A DNA stretch of 64,000 nt from a virus. Lineage: Duplodnaviria > Caudoviricetes. How positions within the stretch are numbered: position 1 is the first letter of the stretch; each line of letters starts with the position of its first letter. Made by a program: the position numbers and the translations under genes. The stretch lies in the IMG/VR virus record IMGVR_UViG_3300033067_002106, positions 1 through 64,000 of that record, one strand, 5' to 3'. The notes below the pieces were generated by a model. The model searched no databases and was not told where the DNA came from. It saw nothing but the letters and a program-made list of their open reading frames with translations. Below are positions 33,005 through 51,859 of the stretch, piece by piece.

Positions 33005-33255
33005 TGACACCAAGTGAAGTAGCAGAGTTTAATCCAGAAGCGTATATATGCGATGGATTTGATGAAGCTTTGATAGGAATTGCCGAACGAATAAATCTCG
33101 GCCCAGTTGCGGCATATTCCGTTGAAAAAATTATTGATATTCTTGTTTTGAGAGATGGAATGTCATACGATGATGCAAGAGAATATTTTGAGTTTAATAT
33201 TCTAGATGCTTGGGTTGGAGAAAACACACCAGTATTTATTACAATGACAACATAG
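33004..33255 (+). CDS. Conserved phage hypothetical protein
   Basis: DGFDEALIG...AYS...EYFEFNI pattern common in phages. Confidence 0.6.
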   Translation: MTPSEVAEFNPEAYICDGFDEALIGIAERINLGPVAAYSVEKIIDILVLRDGMSYDDAREYFEFNILDAWVGENTPVFITMTT

Positions 33256-33472: not shown

Positions 33473-34183
33473 ATGGACCAGTACAACGAATTTAAAGATT
33501 ATGCTGTAAAACACATGGGAATTTCATCATTAAATTTTCATTATTGGGAACAAACTCAAAACAGACTTTATGGACCAAGTTCATCATTAACACCATATAT
33601 TCTTGAAGAAAGAGAAATGCGTGTTACTCAAATGGATATCTTTTCAAGAATGATGATGGACCGTATCATTTGGTTGGCTGGCCCAGTTAATGATATGATG
33701 AGTACTGTTGTTCAAGCTCAGCTTATGTTCTTGGATAACTTAGAGGTTAAAGATATTACAATGCATGTTGATACACCGGGAGGTTCTGTTAAATCTGGTC
33801 TTTCAATGGTTGATGTAATGGATTATATTTCTTCAGATGTTATGACAATCAATACCGGTATGGCGGCTTCAATGGGTTCCATTCTTTTAGGTGCTGGTAC
33901 AAAGGGAAAACGTTATAGCCTTCGCTTTAGTAAAGTGATGTTACATCAGGTTAGCAGTGGTGCAGAAGGCAATATTCAAGATATCAGAATTACACTTCAA
34001 GAAAGTGAAAAATATAACGAAATTCTTTTCGGGTTGTTGGGGAAATACACCAACAAAGACCCAAAACAAGTTCTAGACGATGCCAAACGTGATATGTGGT
34101 TAACAGCTGAAGAAGCAGTTAATTACGGAATTATTGATGGTATTGTACATAATAAAGTAAAAGTAAAACCAAAAATTCTATGA
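33473..34183 (+). CDS. clpP: ATP-dependent Clp protease proteolytic subunit
   Basis: MDIFSRMMMDRII, TPGGSV, GMAASMGS (catalytic Ser), MLHQ (His), RDMW (Asp). Confidence 0.95.
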   Translation: MDQYNEFKDYAVKHMGISSLNFHYWEQTQNRLYGPSSSLTPYILEEREMRVTQMDIFSRMMMDRIIWLAGPVNDMMSTVVQAQLMFLDNLEVKDITMHVDTPGGSVKSGLSMVDVMDYISSDVMTINTGMAASMGSILLGAGTKGKRYSLRFSKVMLHQVSSGAEGNIQDIRITLQESEKYNEILFGLLGKYTNKDPKQVLDDAKRDMWLTAEEAVNYGIIDGIVHNKVKVKPKIL

Positions 34184-34494
34184 ATTATTCAGAAAATGTA
34201 GGAAGACCTGTCTATTTGGGTGAAGAAAAAGCACCAAGTGGATTAGGAGTACCTAGAAACGATGAGGCCAGATTAGCAGACCAAACGCCAATTGCGACAG
34301 CAGAGATTAATTTACGACCAGTTAATATTGAACCATTAAATTCTGGTTATGTGGTAAGGGTTGGGTGCCAAACAATAGCAGTTGAAACAACCGAAAAACT
34401 ATTGGTATATCTCGGTGAGTACCTTAAAGACCCAGTCAAATTTCAAGCAAAATGGTTTTCTATCACGGATAGAAATAAATTGAATTTTATGTAA
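34180..34494 (+). CDS. Hypothetical protein
   Basis: ATGA-type overlap with clpP. Confidence 0.6.
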   Translation: MNYSENVGRPVYLGEEKAPSGLGVPRNDEARLADQTPIATAEINLRPVNIEPLNSGYVVRVGCQTIAVETTEKLLVYLGEYLKDPVKFQAKWFSITDRNKLNFM

Positions 34495-34582
34495 TGTTTT
34501 TTATTAAAAATTGTATATTTATTCGAAATGTAGTATATTTGTGCTACATTTCGGATACTTATATTAATAGTTCTTTTTTTAT

Positions 34583-34936
34583 GGGGGATTTACGGTATTG
34601 ACTAGGTATAGTCGTAAATTGTAAGCATGTGGTGCTAAATGGATGCACCATAATCTGTCTATTAAAACACAAACGACAACGATTTTATCGTTTCAGAAAA
34701 TTTCCTTGATGAAGCTGTTTACAGCTTCGCTGGAGAGCTTGCTGTAGCCTAATATAGCGATGGTGGTAAACCACCAAAAACATCTTTTTAGAGTGAGGAT
34801 GTAAAAGAAACTCTGGGTTCATTTGGTTTCCAACATTAAAACCAAAATATTTAGAAGGATTAGAAAATCCTGTTCTAAACATGTAGAAAGCTTTTGAAGA
34901 ATACTTAACACAGCGGTTCGATTCCGCTATCCTCCA
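34583..34936 (+). ncRNA. ssrA: tmRNA
   Basis: 5' GGGGGAT...TTGAC and 3' GCGG-TTCGATT-CCGC-TATCCTCC-A with G3:U70; tag ORF 34669-34752 TNDNDFIVSENFLDEAVYSFAGELAVA*; CCA not encoded. Confidence 0.9.
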
Positions 34937-34983
34937 CGTTACTTTTTTGTACCTAGCACATATTTATATAGAAATGTATAGAT

Positions 34984-35598
34984 ATGCCTAGAAAACAAAA
35001 AACAATTCACTACCTTTATAAAACCACATGCTTGGTCACTGGTAGATATTATATCGGAATGCATAGTACATCTAACCTTGAAGATGGTTATTTAGGGAGT
35101 GGAAAAGTAATAAGACGTTCAATTCGGAAATATGGACCGGAAAACCATAAAAAAGAGATATTAGAGTTCTTTGAGAGTAGAGAGTTATTAATTGAGGCTG
35201 AGAAGATGGTAATAACACCGGAGATGGTAGTTGATAAAATGTGTATGAATTTGATACATGGAGGTATTGGTTGGATGTTATCCCATAACAAAGCCTTTAG
35301 CGAAAAACTTAAATTGGATGAAGAATTCAGATTAGATTTTTCAAATAAAATATCAAATGCTCGGAAACGAGAATTAAAATTTAATCTTCGCCCAAACTTT
35401 AATTGTGATTGGACGGGTAAGAAACATTTAGAATCAACAATTATAAAGATGCGTGAAAAAAAACTTGGTACTGGAGTAAAAGAAGCAAATTCAAAATATG
35501 GAACTTGTTGGATTACGAATGGTGTTGAAAATAAAAAAATCAACTTAGTCGACCTTGATAACTATTCTAATTCAGAATGGTTTAGAGGTAGAACATAA
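34984..35598 (+). CDS. GIY-YIG (Seg-like) homing endonuclease with NUMOD-like tail
   Basis: YLYKTT...YYIGMH...YLGSG; GKKHLEST. Confidence 0.8.
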   Translation: MPRKQKTIHYLYKTTCLVTGRYYIGMHSTSNLEDGYLGSGKVIRRSIRKYGPENHKKEILEFFESRELLIEAEKMVITPEMVVDKMCMNLIHGGIGWMLSHNKAFSEKLKLDEEFRLDFSNKISNARKRELKFNLRPNFNCDWTGKKHLESTIIKMREKKLGTGVKEANSKYGTCWITNGVENKKINLVDLDNYSNSEWFRGRT

Positions 35599-36594: not shown

Positions 36595-36666
36595 TGCGAG
36601 GTAGAGCAGTAGTAGCTCGTGTGGCTCATAACCATAAGGTCGGGGGTGCAAATCCCTCCCTCGCAA
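36595..36666 (+). tRNA. tRNA-Met(CAT)
   Basis: Full cloverleaf; loop CTCATAA; T loop TGCAAAT; paired 1:72. Confidence 0.8.
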
Positions 36667-36721
36667 CATCATCAAAATAACGTCAGCGGAATTGGACTGC
36701 TGTTTATTATTGATAAAAAAT

Positions 36722-36805
36722 CGTGGGATGGTGTAACGGCAACATGCTAGGCTCATAACCTAGAGACATCAAATGCAAGTGTAGGTTCGAGTCCTACTCC
36801 CGCAA
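36722..36805 (+). tRNA. Initiator-like tRNA(CAT) with long variable region
   Basis: C1xA72 mismatch, CTAGG-CTCATAA-CCTAG arm, 17-nt variable region. Confidence 0.7.
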
Positions 36806-36851
36806 CAAAGCAAAGGCCCTTAGGGGCCGTTTGCATTTAAAAAAGAAATAT

Positions 36852-37532
36852 ATGAAAAAGAACATTACCCTAGAAATCAGAGATGCTGAAGGTGGCTCTG
36901 ATGCAAAACTTCTGGTCTGTGATATGAGAGACATCTATATCAGAGCAGCAAAGAATAACGACTTCAACTGAAGGGTTCTCGAAGAACGAGATGGGTTTGT
37001 CAATATCTGACTCTCAGGCCCAAATGTCGAAAAATTTTATCAAAACGAAATAGGTTCTCACAGGTGGCAAAGAGTTCCACCAACCGAAAAACGTGGTAGG
37101 GTTCATACCAGTACCATTACCGTTGCATTGCTTGAACTTACCAATTATCAAAATATTGAGGTACCACAAAATGAACTTAAGGTTGAAACAACCAGAGGTA
37201 CAGGTAATGGTGGACAACATAAAAATTCTACTGATTCGTGTGTTGTAATGACCCATATACCAACAGGTATAAAGGTTGTGAGAGATGGTAGAAGTCAACT
37301 TACAAATAGGGAAGATGCATATAAAGAGATAAATCGTAGAGTAAATGAATATTATCGTACTGGTCAAATGTGTGAAGAATCTGAAATTCGAAAAGAACAA
37401 ATCGGTGACGGTGCTAGAAGTGATAAACGAAGAACCTATCGTGTTAGGGATGGAATAGTCGTAGACCACATTACAAATAAAATTGCAACAATAAAAGAAA
37501 TTTTAAAGGGTAAGATTAATTTATTGTCATAA
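36852..37532 (+). CDS. RF1-like peptide chain release factor (lacks domain 1) with two in-frame TGA codons
   Basis: Continuous frame MKKNITLEIRDAEGG...FN*RV...NI*LSG...QRVPPTEKRGRVHTST...GGQH; TGA at 36969-36971 and 37008-37010. Confidence 0.85.
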
Positions 37533-38497: not shown

Positions 38498-38568
38498 GGC
38501 TCGGTGGTGTAACGACAACATTTAGGACTCTAAATCCGAAAGATAAGGGTTTGAATCCCTTTCGAGTC
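38498..38568 (+). tRNA. Amber suppressor tRNA(CTA), Gln-like body
   Basis: Cloverleaf; loop CT-CTA-AA (anticodon 38530-38532); own TATCTTTG promoter at 38480; one mismatch in anticodon stem. Confidence 0.75.
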
Positions 38569-38582
38569 TCAAAACCTTGAAA

Positions 38583-38941: not shown

Positions 38942-39625
38942 ATGAAAAGACCAAATGTTAGAAAAACAACCGAGAAGTTTATTCAAGAATGTCAAAAAAT
39001 TCACAAAAAATACGACTATTCATTAGTTGAGTACGTTACAAATAAAACTCCTGTCAAAATTATTTGTAACATACATGGTGTATTTAGCCAAATTCCATCC
39101 CATCATTTAAAAGGTTCTGGGTGTCCAAAGTGTGCCAATGACGTTAAATCAATAGAGTTCTTCATTGAGAAATCAAAATTGATTCATGGTAATTATTACG
39201 ATTATTCAAAAGTAGAATTTAAAAACACGAATAATAAAGTAATTATTGTCTGCCCCAAACACGGTGATTTTAGTCAACAACCAAAACATCATTATAATGG
39301 TGCTGGGTGCCCATATTGTAAGCAATCTAAAGGTGAAAGGGACATAATAAAATATCTTAAGGAAAACAATATAAAATTTATTTCACAAAAGAGATTTAAT
39401 GATTGTAGAGATAAAAAACCATTACCGTTTGATTTTTATCTACCAGAATTAAATATTTGTATTGAATTTGATGGTGAACAACATTTTAAAAGTAAATCAG
39501 TTTTTGGTGGTGACAAAGAATTTGAGAATAGGGTCAGACGTGATGTAATAAAAACCAATTATTGTGATAAAACTGGAATTAAATTAATAAGAATTAAAAA
39601 TAACGAAACAATTAATCTAAAATAA
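38942..39625 (+). CDS. Putative homing endonuclease (DUF723-like Zn repeats + Vsr/DUF559-like nuclease)
   Basis: Two YDYS...IICxxHG...HxxGxGCPxC repeats; FDFYLP...IEFDGEQH. Confidence 0.8.
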   Translation: MKRPNVRKTTEKFIQECQKIHKKYDYSLVEYVTNKTPVKIICNIHGVFSQIPSHHLKGSGCPKCANDVKSIEFFIEKSKLIHGNYYDYSKVEFKNTNNKVIIVCPKHGDFSQQPKHHYNGAGCPYCKQSKGERDIIKYLKENNIKFISQKRFNDCRDKKPLPFDFYLPELNICIEFDGEQHFKSKSVFGGDKEFENRVRRDVIKTNYCDKTGIKLIRIKNNETINLK

Positions 39626-39629
39626 AACT

Positions 39630-39986
39630 ATGACACATTAGGTATCAACAACAGAAAAACTAAGGGTGGTTACCAGACGTGACCTATCATTTGGTGCGCA
39701 ATCAATTCAATGCGGTCATGCCGCCATCGATTTTCAACACCAGCATCCAGAATTAGCCAAACTTTGGCACTCCCATTCAAATTATTTAGCGTATTTAACC
39801 GTCAAGGACGAACAAGAGCTTATTGACTTAATCGTCAAAGCAACCTTGCGTGGTATCAAATACACAATCTTCAGGGAGCCTGATATCAATAATCAAATTA
39901 CAGCGGTGGCCTTTGAGCCAACAAGTGCTAGTCGTAAGTTAACTAGTTCATTACCACTTCTGGGAAAGGAGGTAAGCTATGCTTAA
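39630..39986 (+). CDS. pth2: Peptidyl-tRNA hydrolase 2 family protein with in-frame TAG at codon 4
   Basis: ATG ACA CAT TAG GTA...KLRVVTRRDL...IQCGHAA...FREPDINNQITAVA. Confidence 0.8.
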
Positions 39987-40348: not shown

Positions 40349-40385
40349 AATTTGACGTTTTATCATTTTCATGATATTTATTAAT

Positions 40386-40970
40386 ATGGAAAAAGAATTA
40401 TTAAAAAAATATATTGATGAGGGTCTCTCAATAAGAAAAATTGCTGAAAAATTAAGTTGTTCAGCAACAACAATTAGGTATTATTTAAACAAATTTGATT
40501 TGGTAAGCAAATGGCATCAGCCAAATAAATTTAATGTTGAAGTAATTAGAAAATTATGTGAAGAAAAAATTAGTATTTCTGAAATTTTACGTGAATTAAA
40601 TTTACATGTTAGCAACACTAATTTTTTATCTATAAAGAGATTTGCAAAAAAAAATAATATTATATTGCCTAAAAATGGAAATAAAAGCGGAAATAAACGA
40701 TTTCCAAAAAGAACGAATAGTGAAATTTTTTGTGTAAATAGTCCCGTTAGTAGGGGGGTGGTAAGAAAACGATTATTAGAAGAAGGTCGAGGTGAAAAAT
40801 GTGAATTATGTACACAAGGTATTGAATGGAACGGAAGAAAAATATCTATGATATTAGACCATATTAATGGGGTTCCAGACGATAATAGACGTGAAAATTT
40901 AAGATTTATATGCCCAAATTGCGACTCAACATTAGACACATTTTGTGGGCGAAATAAAAGATATAAATAA
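40386..40970 (+). CDS. HNH homing endonuclease with N-terminal HTH
   Basis: CELC...LDHING...NRRENLRFICPNCDS. Confidence 0.85.
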   Translation: MEKELLKKYIDEGLSIRKIAEKLSCSATTIRYYLNKFDLVSKWHQPNKFNVEVIRKLCEEKISISEILRELNLHVSNTNFLSIKRFAKKNNIILPKNGNKSGNKRFPKRTNSEIFCVNSPVSRGVVRKRLLEEGRGEKCELCTQGIEWNGRKISMILDHINGVPDDNRRENLRFICPNCDSTLDTFCGRNKRYK

Positions 40971-40971
40971 T

Positions 40972-41042
40972 GTGGGTGTAGCTTAAAGGTAAAGCGATGG
41001 TCTCTAAAACCATTGTTGACAGTTCGATTCTGTTCATCCATA
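40972..41042 (+). tRNA. Amber suppressor tRNA(CTA), Trp-like body
   Basis: ATGGT-CTCTAAA-ACCAT anticodon arm, canonical D and T arms. Confidence 0.8.
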
Positions 41043-41050
41043 CAGATACT

Positions 41051-41632: not shown

Positions 41633-43597
41633 ATGATAATGAAAAAAATCATCACATTTCTAGCAATTCTGATTGGTTTTCAGGGACTTACACAAGATAC
41701 CCTAAAGATTATAACCCTTGAAAGGGCCTTGGTAACTAGTGTTAGGGCGGATAAAAAAACCCCTATAACACAGAAAACAATCGGGGATACATCCATACAG
41801 GAAACATATCAGGGTCAGGAGATTCCGATGCTTTTAGGCTCTCAGCCATCAATAAATTCAAATAGTGATGGTGGTCATCCATTCGGTTATAGTTATTTTA
41901 GTCTTAGAGGGGCTAGTCAAAGCAGAATCAATATGACGCTTAATGGTGTACCACTTAATGAACCGGAAGACCATGGTGTATATACATCAAACTATCCAAG
42001 CTTTATTAATTCAATTCAATCGATTCAAATACAAAGAGGTGTTGGAACATCCTCTAACGGTGCTGCATCGTTTATTGGGTCTATTAATTTTCAAACAAAA
42101 AATGGTCTTAAAAAAGCGACAGATATTCAGTTGGGTGCCGGTGCTTTCAATACGCTACGGTTTAATGCTTCAACAGCATCTGGATTAAATAAAAACAACA
42201 TTGCATATGTGGTAAATATTGGTGGAATCAGAACCGATGGTTTCCGTGAAAACTCTGGAAGTGTTGGTGGTTCAGTATTTACAAGTCTTGGTTATTTTGG
42301 AAATAAAAGAATCACCAAGGTAGTATTTTTTTCTGGTCAGAGTAAAAACAAAATGGCGTGGGATGGCTCAGATGAAAGTGTTTTGAAAACAAACTTTAGG
42401 GACAATCCAAGAGGTTTGGATAATACGGATTTGTTCACCCAATCCCATATTCAATTACACAATGTAAACATGTTCAGTAAGAAATTTAAACTTACAACAA
42501 CTGTTTTTTATAATCATTTAAGGGGCCATTACGATGTTTATAGCATGAAGGATATTTCAGCCATTGGTTATTATGCCGCCGAAAAACAATCATCTAATTG
42601 GTTTGGCTATATCAATCAATTCGATTATAAATCACGTACAACCAATCTTAGCGTTGGTGTGTCATTAAACACATATAAACGGAACCACAATGGTGTTAAA
42701 TATTATGATAGCACAACAAGCTTAGAATATAGCAACCATGGAGTAAAGAATGAGGCTAGTGGGTTTGTTAAGGTAAACTTTGGTGATGATGTGGTCAGAT
42801 TTTATGCTGACCTCCAAGGCCGTTACATTGATTTTAAATATCTGGGTGATGTTCCAATGAATAAACAATCATGGTTCTTTATAAATCCAAAGATTGGTCT
42901 AAAGATATTCTTCAACAAGGATATCGATGTTTATTCCAGTTTAGCAATATCCCACAGGGAACCAACAAGGTCAGTTTTATTTGGTGGTGGATTTTATTTA
43001 ACAACATTAAATTTGATTAAACCTGAAGAGGTTATCGATTTCGAACTTGGAACAAACTATAAAACGGACAGGCTCAGACTTCAATCCAATATTTTTTACA
43101 TGGCGTTTAGGAATGAAATTATTCCAGCTGGTCCAATAGGTTCAAATAGCCTACCAACAATGATTAATGTTGATAAAAGCAAAAGATATGGACTTGAAGT
43201 TGACGCTCAATATGCTTTATCAGACAGGGTTTCATATGATGGTAATCTTACTCTTTCACGGAGCCAATTCGGGGACCAAAAAAATGAACAACTGTTTTCA
43301 CCAAGAGTAATGTTTAATCAATCTATAACGCTTGAATATCGAGAACTATCACTTGGGGTAAACCAAACTGTTTTTTCTAAATCATACATTGATATTACAA
43401 ACACAAACTCAATGGCTGGTTATTTTGTGTATGGGGTTAATGTGTCTTATGAAAAAAATAATTATAGGGTCAGCATACAAGCCAATAACATAACAGATAA
43501 AAAATATTATTCGAATGGTTATGTTGCAAATGGTGTGAGATATCTTTATCCAAATGCTCTAGCCAGCTATTATGTGACGGTTAAAATTAGGTTATGA
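41633..43597 (+). CDS. TonB-dependent outer-membrane receptor
   Basis: Signal peptide with Q+1, plug motifs FSLRG...NGVPLN and IQIQRG...GSINF, beta-barrel pattern. Confidence 0.9.
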   Translation: MIMKKIITFLAILIGFQGLTQDTLKIITLERALVTSVRADKKTPITQKTIGDTSIQETYQGQEIPMLLGSQPSINSNSDGGHPFGYSYFSLRGASQSRINMTLNGVPLNEPEDHGVYTSNYPSFINSIQSIQIQRGVGTSSNGAASFIGSINFQTKNGLKKATDIQLGAGAFNTLRFNASTASGLNKNNIAYVVNIGGIRTDGFRENSGSVGGSVFTSLGYFGNKRITKVVFFSGQSKNKMAWDGSDESVLKTNFRDNPRGLDNTDLFTQSHIQLHNVNMFSKKFKLTTTVFYNHLRGHYDVYSMKDISAIGYYAAEKQSSNWFGYINQFDYKSRTTNLSVGVSLNTYKRNHNGVKYYDSTTSLEYSNHGVKNEASGFVKVNFGDDVVRFYADLQGRYIDFKYLGDVPMNKQSWFFINPKIGLKIFFNKDIDVYSSLAISHREPTRSVLFGGGFYLTTLNLIKPEEVIDFELGTNYKTDRLRLQSNIFYMAFRNEIIPAGPIGSNSLPTMINVDKSKRYGLEVDAQYALSDRVSYDGNLTLSRSQFGDQKNEQLFSPRVMFNQSITLEYRELSLGVNQTVFSKSYIDITNTNSMAGYFVYGVNVSYEKNNYRVSIQANNITDKKYYSNGYVANGVRYLYPNALASYYVTVKIRL

Positions 43598-47647: not shown

Positions 47648-47718
47648 ACAGGTATGGTGCAATGGTAGCATACGAGTCTCCAAAACTTTTGATGTGGGTT
47701 CGAATCCTACTACCTGTG
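47648..47718 (+). tRNA. tRNA-Trp(CCA)
   Basis: Canonical cloverleaf, loop CTCCAAA, G73. Confidence 0.85.
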
Positions 47719-47815
47719 CATTGTGCATCGCCTAGCCTCTTATTGGCTCTCTAAACCAATTACGAAGCGATTCCCTAACGCAAGGGAGATACGTTAATAA
47801 TAAGAATGTATCACA

Positions 47816-47899
47816 CACCTCGGCTCATTGGCGTGACCAGTCGGTTCCAACCCGATAATGCGTAAGCGTGGTTAAGAGTTCGAATCTCTTCCTTGGTGC
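47816..47899 (+). tRNA. Atypical tRNA(CCA) with long variable arm
   Basis: GTCGG-TTCCAAC-CCGAT arm, AAGAG/CTCTT T arm, mismatched acceptor. Confidence 0.45.
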
Positions 47900-48304: not shown

Positions 48305-48350
48305 CAAAGTAATCGAAAGAACAGTACTTAACGATTAGATTACTAGACAG

Positions 48351-48437
48351 ACCCTATTGGTCGAGAGGCTTAAGACATCTTGCGAGAAGCAGGAGGCCCC
48401 GTGAAATGGTCCGTGGGTTCGAATCCCACATAGGGTT
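48351..48437 (+). tRNA. Ser-like type II tRNA with atypical anticodon loop
   Basis: Good acceptor, T and variable arms; loop CGAGAAG lacks U33, so the anticodon is ambiguous. Confidence 0.5.
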
Positions 48438-48446
48438 TGTCAACTT

Positions 48447-48628: not shown

Positions 48629-48704
48629 TGTTAAGTGGTGTAATTGTAGATAGCATGACTCTAGCGCAGGGGTAGGAAGTTGGTGCAACTCCAATACTTA
48701 ACAG
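48629..48704 (+). tRNA. Degenerate tRNA-like gene, anticodon unclear
   Basis: TGTTAAG/CTTAACA acceptor, D arm and TGCAACT T loop; irregular anticodon arm. Confidence 0.35.
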
Positions 48705-48710
48705 CAACAT

Positions 48711-48801
48711 GGTGTGTGTGGTCCGAGTGGTCGAAGGAATCTGCCTGTGAAGCAGAATGAGATTATATCAAACGTCGTGGGTTCAAATCCCATCATGCAC
48801 C
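48711..48801 (+). tRNA. Type II (long variable arm) tRNA-His(GTG)
   Basis: TCTGC-CTGTGAA-GCAGA, G-1:C73, Tyr/Ser-like D arm, 20-nt variable region. Confidence 0.7.
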
Positions 48802-48846
48802 CTTTAAGATGGTTGTGAGTATACTGTAATCAGAAACTCTCAAATC

Positions 48847-48931: not shown

Positions 48932-49014
48932 CCTGACGAGGCAGACTGGTTGATGCACCACCCTGATAAGGTGGGTTCGCAAGAACAAGGTGGGTTCGAT
49001 TCTCACCGTCAGGA
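48932..49014 (+). tRNA. Type II tRNA-Ile(GAT)
   Basis: CCACC-CTGATAA-GGTGG, variable hairpin GTTC-GCAA-GAAC. Confidence 0.7.
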
Positions 49015-49016
49015 CA

Positions 49017-49638: not shown

Positions 49639-49723
49639 GGATGGGTTGCTTTAGAGGCCGAAAAGTCTAGATTGTTAATCTAGTGTCGCAAGACCACCGT
49701 GGGTTCGACTCCCACCCCATCCT
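49639..49723 (+). tRNA. Type II tRNA-Asn(GTT)
   Basis: CTAGA-TTGTTAA-TCTAG, variable hairpin GTC-GCAA-GAC. Confidence 0.75.
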
Positions 49724-49730
49724 CAAATAT

Positions 49731-51780: not shown

Positions 51781-51859
51781 GCCGATGTAACCAGTTCTGT
51801 CTTCGAAACAGTTATCTGTAATGGAGTTGCAAATGTGGGTTCGAATCCCTCCATCGGTT
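51781..51859 (+). tRNA. Rearranged tRNA-Arg(TCG)-like gene
   Basis: GCCGATG/CATCGGT, CTGT-CTTCGAA-ACAG, GTAATGG after the anticodon arm. Confidence 0.65.

Follow-up and report, generated by a model that had tools for sequence, protein, structure and literature searches.

The window, a stretch of 64,000 nucleotides of DNA (positions 1 to 64,000 of IMG/VR record IMGVR_UViG_3300033067_002106), derives from a wastewater giant phage and carries a short RF1-type release factor gene without domain 1 (36852..37532, + strand), recognized by frame reading, Pfam, NCBIfam and structure match. The gene is interrupted by two in-frame TGA codons. From the sequence data, we consider it fairly probable that the factor is made only via read-through of these two weak UGAs, and that the contest between a tRNA and RF2 at each of them reports the state of termination.

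With the two TGA codons included, the frame comprises 226 codons and runs open from the ATG at 36852 to the TAA at 37530-37532 on the + strand. It translates as MKKNITLEIRDAEGG...PPTEKRGRVHTS...GNGGQHKN, with exactly two internal stops. The first, gate 1, is codon 40 (36969..36971, + strand) in the context AAC TGA AGG; the second, gate 2, is codon 53 (37008..37010, + strand) in the context ATC TGA CTC. The first-pass annotation had described a single release factor frame with stops at these two codons, and inspection of the sequence confirms it. The same holds for its remark that the ORF track catches only the 3′ part of the gene, as a mechanical ORF lister calls nothing but 37128-37532 (134 aa). 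Because gene callers truncate gated factor genes, phage release factors are under-annotated. Chance as the origin of the interrupted frame is excluded by the homologues.

Domain architecture of the release factor

The read-through translation matches the Pfam families PCRF (PF03462, 69.6 bits, profile positions 99-194 only) and RF-1 (PF00472, 81.2 bits). Among the NCBIfam models, prfA (195 bits) ranks above prfB (108) and prfH (66), every score lying under its cut-off; for the prfA equivalog NF001859 that cut-off is 400 bits, and the factor thus falls short of a full-length RF1. Compared with solved structures, the factor scores 135 bits against RF1 chains and 87 bits against RF2 chains. The alignment covers only residues 89-313 of the 342-residue RF1, and domain 1 is therefore missing. 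An AF2 model built on an alignment of 38 family members reaches a pLDDT of 88 and superimposes on ribosome-bound RF1 with a TM score of 0.90 and an rmsd of 2.1 Å. Both gate stops fall within the β2-β3 hairpin of domain 2 in this model (strands 39-46 and 49-56), gate 1 in strand β2 and gate 2 in strand β3.

The functional motifs of an RF1-type factor are retained. The codon-reading PxT motif is present as PPT at codons 76-78 (37077..37085, + strand), embedded in RWQRVPPTEKRGRVHTS, and the peptidyl-tRNA hydrolysis motif GGQ occupies codons 120-122 (37209..37217, + strand) and is invariant in the 38 sequences. The reading elements Gln73, Pro-Pro-Thr 76-78 and His-Thr-Ser 85-87 are, like the GGQ, invariant or nearly so in this set. 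The factor displays several features of a class I release factor of the RF1 type: PCRF and RF-1 domains, a domain 2-3-4 fold, a PxT motif with the flanking Gln and His-Thr-Ser, and GGQ. On these motifs we assign it as RF1-type and predict that it reads UAA and UAG. The earlier assignment to RF1 from the PxT motif is hence borne out by the motifs, by the prfA score exceeding prfB and by the RF1 chains outscoring those of RF2. PrfH was considered as an identity and rejected, as the factor scores 65.9 bits against TIGR03072 (cut-off 166.65) and its model matches the PrfH structure with a TM score of 0.63, compared to 0.90 for RF1.

Gate forms among relatives

IMG/VR contains 354 relatives of the factor; stops and changes of frame were recorded at 86 loci, counting the window. 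In the phage collection, the top-scoring matches are uncultured huge phages (595-735 kb), and four of these five show an in-frame TGA at the same position or one close by. Stop positions are kept in relatives of 40-78% identity, with in-frame TGA at the same sites in those of 45-78%. All but two of the complete loci among the 86 are gated between codons 38 and 55, either by an in-frame TGA (rarely TAG) or by a prfB-like +1 frameshift at CTT-TAG-C or CTT-TGA-C. The window's own arrangement, TGA40 with TGA53, is found in 18 of the 86 phage loci, window counted, and TGA38 in another 18. TGA53 stands alone in 16 loci, and 5 combine TGA45 with TGA53. TGA49 also occurs in 5, TGA45 with TAG53 in 3 and TGA45 alone in 3, while a single TGA or TAG at 39, 40 or 49 accounts for 4. 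The +1 frameshift is placed at CTT TAG C, exactly at site 53-55, in 9 loci (one also with TGA40) and at CTT TGA C in 1. One locus with TAG49 plus TAA183 looks degraded, 2 are ungated and 1 is partial. Codon 53 is the commonest gate site, with a stop in 35 of 66 distinct in-frame members, and it is also the +1 frameshift site in sister phages.

Records of bacterial and archaeal genomes yielded 126 further relatives, of which 80 were scored. A clean CTT-stop +1 frameshift (TGA, TAG and once TAA), mostly at codon 39, is present in 43 of the 80; these frameshift loci belong mostly to Myxococcota and include the Minicystis rosea chromosome. An in-frame TGA is found in 12 and no gate in 8, and in most others the N-terminal part was unplaceable. 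Several of the "genomes" that hold relatives of the factor are plainly mis-binned phage contigs. Two records filed as Methanobacterium and Aenigmatarchaeota MAGs (L184, PLXT01000115.1; L186, JAPLUX010000131.1) contain copies 64-69% identical to the factor, the former gated by TGA40 and TGA53 and the latter by a TAG near codon 55 accompanied by a shift of frame; both are almost certainly mis-binned huge-phage contigs.

In a quick maximum-likelihood tree of the C-terminal part, the gate types interleave, and the frameshift forms nest among those with TGA40 and TGA53. In-frame gates are almost always UGA, while frameshift gates use UGA or UAG freely. Stop-less members carry an aromatic residue at gate sites 38 and 49, where Phe, Tyr or Trp is found in them and in cellular RF1. 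Sister phages have Cys codons at both gate sites; at other gate sites the aligned residue is Phe, Tyr, Glu or Lys. The conservation of the TGA positions, which the first-pass annotation had proposed to examine in homologues, is thus seen in the 18 phage loci of the window's type among 86, with the same pattern in the 80 loci from genome records. Judged from these comparisons, gating is common to the family, and its forms (UGA, UAG and +1 frameshift) are interchangeable.

Authenticity and selection

Contigs from four public runs, belonging to three studies (2020-2025), contain the 2.1-kb stretch around the factor gene without a single difference; the sources are wastewater RNA libraries from 2024, a river metagenome from 2025 and activated sludge from 2020. 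As these sequences are contigs, they demonstrate presence and not transcription; the contigs from RNA libraries contain the TGAs unedited. Pairwise comparison of the closer relatives gives dN/dS values of 0.13 (codons 1-37), 0.38 (the gate stretch, codons 38-55) and 0.16 (codons 56-226). The low value at codons 1-37 indicates that the part 5′ of the stops is kept as protein in this frame, and the comparison of both sides, suggested beforehand as a check, gives purifying selection on each. Measured in this way, the factor gene is under purifying selection across both UGAs and is neither an error nor a pseudogene. The case set out in advance as refuting a functional gate, with stop-less homologues, a pseudogene or a sequencing error, is contradicted by conserved stops, purifying selection and identical independent assemblies.

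Stop codon context and RNA structure

Of the three stop codons, UGA is the one most prone to read-through in bacteria, and prfB has its stop in the context UGA-C. Of 85 distinct gate TGAs, 48 are followed by A, 35 by C, 2 by G and none by T. The 177 true TGA terminators of related phages are followed by T in 76 (43%), A in 67, C in 17 and G in 17. The difference is pronounced (Fisher p 2e-16 for T and 1e-8 for C), with the events not phylogenetically independent. Wherever a Leu codon follows a gate TGA it is CTN (34 of 34), compared with 58% TTA/TTG among the Leu codons of this phage. A U located 3′ of the stop is reported to strengthen bacterial termination (PMC5289835). By this comparison, the gate stop contexts are weak and selected to leak.

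No conserved RNA structure was found 3′ of the gate UGAs (RNAalifold 0 pairs; single-sequence z-score -0.02), and neither stop in the window is preceded by a purine-rich, Shine-Dalgarno-like stimulator. The CUU-stop-C heptamer with its +1 shift is likewise absent from the window's gene, in which both stops are in frame. The sequence hallmarks of programmed read-through are present: a position-conserved stop, coding selection on both sides and a weak stop context.

Genetic code of the phage

The window belongs to a contig of 82.8 kb, about 23% of the genome by CheckV. For comparison we used related genomes, of which G2 and G4 are complete, G5 is complete with terminal repeats and G1 is 96% complete. 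Of 110 simple ORF calls made on the 82.8-kb contig, 84 (about three quarters) end in UAA and 11 in TGA; among the latter is the ClpP gene, which terminates at its expected C-terminus with a full-length Pfam match. Across eight related genomes (the window's own and G1-G7), TGA ends 9% of genes. Of these 177 TGA terminators, 117 are ATGA start/stop overlaps, leaving free-standing TGA at only about 3% of all stops.

In-frame stops were screened in the best-scoring frame at each place, since a screen of any frame was swamped by off-frame matches. Over roughly 48,000 aligned residues (14,467 between the window's own genome and G2, 6,183 between own and G1, and about 27,000 between G1 and G2), in-frame stops inside conserved coding sequence occur only in the factor gene. 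Genome-wide use of code 4 or code 15 was rejected, as stop-to-stop coding coverage barely rises with TGA or TAG as sense. Two statements of the first-pass annotation thereby stand: TGA is a normal stop elsewhere, and the genome is not recoded as a whole, stops within conserved genes being confined to the factor gene. The phage genomes examined contain one RF-1-domain gene each and two copies in G4, and an RF2 gene was not found in them. The second copy in G4 (complete, 362 kb), located about 3 kb from the first (G004:C1:51923-52204) and interrupted by TAA, is probably a decaying duplicate.

Candidate decoders of the gate UGAs

A tRNA-Trp(CCA) gene (47648..47719, + strand; ARAGORN, Rfam 61 bits) is the candidate decoder of the gate UGAs. 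Its C27.U43 mismatch leaves an anticodon stem of 4 bp, and the U11:A24 pair is present. Of the two downstream CCA-anticodon tRNAs proposed earlier, this one is solid; the other (47817-47899) is doubtful, as it appears only at a relaxed ARAGORN threshold with no Rfam match, and we left it uncounted. UGA read-through by tRNA-Trp(CCA) was reported to increase about 2.5-fold in E. coli when the anticodon stem has only 4 bp (PMC13092985, 2026), in a study that makes no mention of phages. The unpaired 27:43 in the window's tRNA-Trp makes the suggestion of a CCA-anticodon tRNA as UGA misreader plausible by comparison.

The window phage and all related phages examined encode a tRNA-Trp(CCA). Position 27:43 is also unpaired in G4 (C.C), G6 (A.C), G7 (G.A), W01 (A.C) and W02 (A.C), and the occurrence of four different mismatches suggests that the lack of pairing itself is kept. 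In a set of 424 phage tRNAs, the mismatch affects 6 of 11 tRNA-Trp and 54 of 413 others (p 0.002). Its association with UGA gating is a trend only (6/11 versus 1/5, p 0.31), and UGA-gated phages include some whose tRNA-Trp stem is paired. A tRNA-Trp pattern search of five records gave no match, the pattern probably being too strict. Among the amber tRNA(CUA) genes of the window and seven relatives, 27:43 is unpaired in five of seven genes, in a set that includes G2, G3, G4, G6 and G7. Both copies in the window are paired there, the first with a mismatch at 28:42. When tRNA(CUA) and tRNA-Trp are pooled, 27:43 is unpaired in 11 of 18, compared with 49 of 406 other tRNAs (p 3e-6).

A tRNA(UCA) was found neither in the window's contig, which represents about 23% of the genome, nor in G1, G2, G4 or G5, and the window's contig contains no tRNA-Sec. 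G3, gated by TGA40 and TGA53 like the window, encodes a tRNA(UCA) (L274:19866-19941, equivalent to G003:C1:239866-239941), and the stem of its tRNA-Trp is fully paired. On account of this genome, different family members may use different UGA decoders. For the gate UGAs in the window, the decoder is most likely tRNA-Trp(CCA), with Trp inserted; the aromatic residues at sites 38 and 49 of stop-less members fit such an insertion.

Genomic neighbourhood

The factor gene resides in a block of conserved order: ClpP, tmRNA, two tRNA-Met, factor gene, tRNA(CUA), Pth2-like gene, tRNA-Cys and second tRNA(CUA). ClpP (33473-34183) lies directly 5′ of the phage tmRNA (34583..34937, + strand; the pair spans 33473-34937), whose predicted tag is long (DNDFIVSENFLDEAVYSFAGELAVA); the two genes resemble a self-sufficient system for tagging and degradation. 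Two tRNA-Met(CAT) genes (36595..36806, + strand), syntenic in relatives, are located directly 5′ of the factor gene, followed by a terminator-like GC hairpin with a T-rich tail (36815..36828, + strand) that lies 24 nt before the start codon. The first amber-suppressor tRNA(CUA) (38498..38570, + strand) is syntenic with the factor gene in most relatives, and the second is found at 40972..41043 (+ strand).

Between the two tRNA(CUA) genes lies a Pth2-like peptidyl-tRNA hydrolase frame (39630-39986) that begins ATG ACA CAT TAG, with TAG as its fourth codon. From its sequence it looks like a second stop-gated translation gene, 2 kb from the factor gene, and its TAG is a likely target for the phage amber suppressors in a genome otherwise of standard code. 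In-frame TAG was not found in conserved genes of the related genomes, except in the G1 factor gene. Candidate amber read-through fusions were rejected at two other places: the homologues end before the TAG at 33253-33255, and beyond the TAG at 82404-82406 there is a separate small ORF.

Further features surround this block. A TonB-dependent receptor gene of 654 residues (Plug and β-barrel; 41633-43597), whose TGA stop is immediately followed by TAG, points to a Gram-negative host; huge-phage relatives have been assigned to Bacteroidetes hosts (PMC7162821). Homing-endonuclease-like genes (GIY-YIG, PvuRts1I-like/DUF723 and HTH-HNH) are dispersed among the tRNA and translation genes at 34984-35598, 38942-39625 and 40371-40970. 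Several tRNA genes (Met, His, Ile and Asn) measure 84-91 nt and have extra arms (36722-36806, 48712-48802, 48932-49015 and 49639-49724), and the 48-52 kb tRNA array includes calls by ARAGORN only (48350-48438, 48629-48705) and by Rfam only (51781-51859). Querying the phage collection at the nucleotide level with an 8-kb piece of the window returned no match.

Proposed mechanism and alternative explanations

Since nearly every relative is gated in the same short stretch, the factor is probably synthesized only when the UGA stops are overridden. We postulate that at each gate UGA a near-cognate tRNA competes with host RF2, the phage supplying its own tRNA-Trp(CCA) with an unpaired 27:43 so that Trp would be inserted. 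As the two gates are arranged in series, the output would follow the product of two read-through probabilities, roughly a square, and the response would therefore be steep, rising sharply when termination at UGA lags behind decoding. The gene would report either the termination state or the arrival of phage tRNAs, and its answer would be extra UAA/UAG termination capacity. Such a response could serve load-sharing: when RF2 is overloaded, extra RF1-type activity would relieve it of UAA. In relatives with CUU-UAG-C, the gate would sense RF1-type activity directly, as prfB senses RF2. We infer the inserted residue, the decoder, RF2 as competitor and the benefit of the gate, each from sequence. 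Since UGA lies outside the reading range of an RF1-type factor, an advantage from tying its synthesis to RF2 status is argued here and not observed. Moreover, close relatives swap UGA for UAG frameshift gates, which weakens RF2 as the specifically sensed input, and a phage-supplied timer or a plain throttle fits the sequence data as well as the sensing of low RF2 activity put forward in the first-pass annotation.

In the timer explanation, the onset of the factor would be set, regardless of RF2, by a dedicated phage suppressor that decodes the UGAs efficiently: the tRNA-Trp with the 4-bp stem, or a tRNA(UCA) encoded in the roughly three quarters of the genome that lie beyond the contig. G3, with its tRNA(UCA), fully paired tRNA-Trp stem and TGA40 plus TGA53 gate, is an example that fits; the window's contig covers only about 23% of its genome, and the Pth2-like gene, with UAG at codon 4 and a tRNA(CUA) on either side, looks likewise gated. 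However, the complete genomes G4 and G5 and the 96%-complete G1 hold UGA-gated copies and no tRNA(UCA), and a suppressor that decoded opal codons efficiently would run past the ends of the 9% of phage genes terminated by TGA as well, which leaves a timer of this kind unlikely, though worth keeping in mind. We regard as less probable still that the stops merely keep an additional release factor, which might be harmful, at a constant and very low level, with no sensing. The free variation of gate type (UGA, UAG, read-through, frameshift) and exact position between close relatives suggests that any inefficient recoding event would do, as this throttle would have it, yet a weak start or promoter would be cheaper, nearly all members keep the stop-codon device, and many retain the exact autoregulatory heptamer of prfB. 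In addition, it is the leakiness of the stop contexts, beyond the mere presence of stops, that appears selected.

Two further explanations are already contradicted. Were UGA sense throughout the host or phage (code 4 or 25), the TGAs would be ordinary Trp or Gly codons. The rarity of free-standing TGA terminators, 117 of 177 being ATGA overlaps, would agree with this, but the other conserved genes contain no in-frame TGA over about 48,000 aligned residues, coding coverage hardly increases, ClpP ends at a TGA and relatives have TAG or a frameshift at the same site, so that we give this explanation very little weight. We give even less to a decaying pseudogene, an assembly error or selenocysteine insertion. 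Identical independent assemblies, purifying selection on both sides and stops conserved in over 150 relatives speak against the first two. The Cys codons at both gate sites in sister phages resemble the situation in selenoprotein families, but there is no conserved hairpin or SECIS 3′ of the UGAs, and other gate sites match Phe, Tyr, Glu and Lys rather than Cys.

Returning to read-through set by the contest of tRNA and RF2, a broader circuit can be envisaged, which we put forward as a tentative and rather doubtful extension. The phage tRNA-Trp(CCA) and the two tRNA(CUA) would gate two genes of translation quality control, the RF1-type factor (at UGA) and the Pth2-like hydrolase (at UAG), respectively; the factor would counter amber suppression, and the termination regime of the host would be set in stages with the code unchanged.

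Comparison with known systems

Huge phages are known to encode RF1, RF2 and tmRNA (PMC7162821). In the full-text literature on phage release factors, frameshifting, in-frame UGA and huge-phage codes, we found no description of stop-codon gating of an RF1-type gene. The family described here has at least three interchangeable kinds of stop-codon gate, and its members occur in giant phages, on plasmids and in myxobacterial chromosomes. To our knowledge, the RF2 frameshift has for forty years been the only textbook case of a release factor gene under its own kind of signal. A gate that responds to termination capacity would offer a second, independent system for studying how stop decoding is gauged and kept in balance by cells and viruses, and it would imply that phages can use single-gene recoding as a switch without genome-wide codon reassignment.

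The prfB gene, encoding RF2, is autoregulated by a programmed +1 frameshift at SD-N3-CUU UGA C. This frameshift has been reviewed (PMC5009743). Like prfB, the window's gene is a release factor gene whose frame meets an early UGA in a leaky context (UGA-C at gate 2), and its full-length product needs failed termination. Sister genes carry the exact heptamer at the site of the gate, as CTT TGA C or CTT TAG C; a CUU-stop-C heptamer with a +1 shift occurs in 10 of 86 phage loci and in 43 of 80 loci from genome records. The parallel to prfB drawn in the first-pass annotation is supported by these relatives, which use the prfB heptamer itself at the window's gate site. Unlike prfB, the window's gene stays in the zero frame and needs read-through twice, with no frameshift; its gate is placed in the domain 2 hairpin, with domain 1 absent and no Shine-Dalgarno stimulator. 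Its product is RF1-type and cannot read UGA, and the control would therefore be cross-regulation instead of the autoregulation of prfB.

Recoded phages carry code-change modules of RF1 or RF2 with a suppressor tRNA and an aaRS (Borges et al., bioRxiv 10.1101/2021.08.26.457843). The window resembles these modules in having a phage release factor beside suppressor tRNAs, and in both cases stop codons are proposed as regulatory devices. In the phages of Borges et al., the code-change genes are in standard code and the recoded stop is found in many late genes, whereas the window's genome is standard and the stops lie inside the release factor gene itself.

The A1 protein of Qbeta is a UGA read-through protein. 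In A1 and in the tRNA-Trp(CCA) read-through cases (PMC13092985), a near-cognate tRNA-Trp decodes a leaky UGA, as the window's tRNA-Trp with its unpaired 27:43 probably does. Those cases give a C-terminal extension or genome-wide reassignment, and not a gate within a translation-factor gene.

PrfH (RF-H) is a release factor homologue without domain 1 that is paired with RtcB. The window's protein likewise combines the absence of domain 1 with a GGQ domain but, unlike PrfH, retains the PxT reading loop. ArfA, under the control of tmRNA, is a backup rescue factor made only upon failure of the primary system. The factor of the window would similarly be a backup termination factor whose synthesis is blocked by the activity it backs up; the two share no homology, ArfA being controlled through a non-stop mRNA and tagging and the window's factor through stop-codon read-through.
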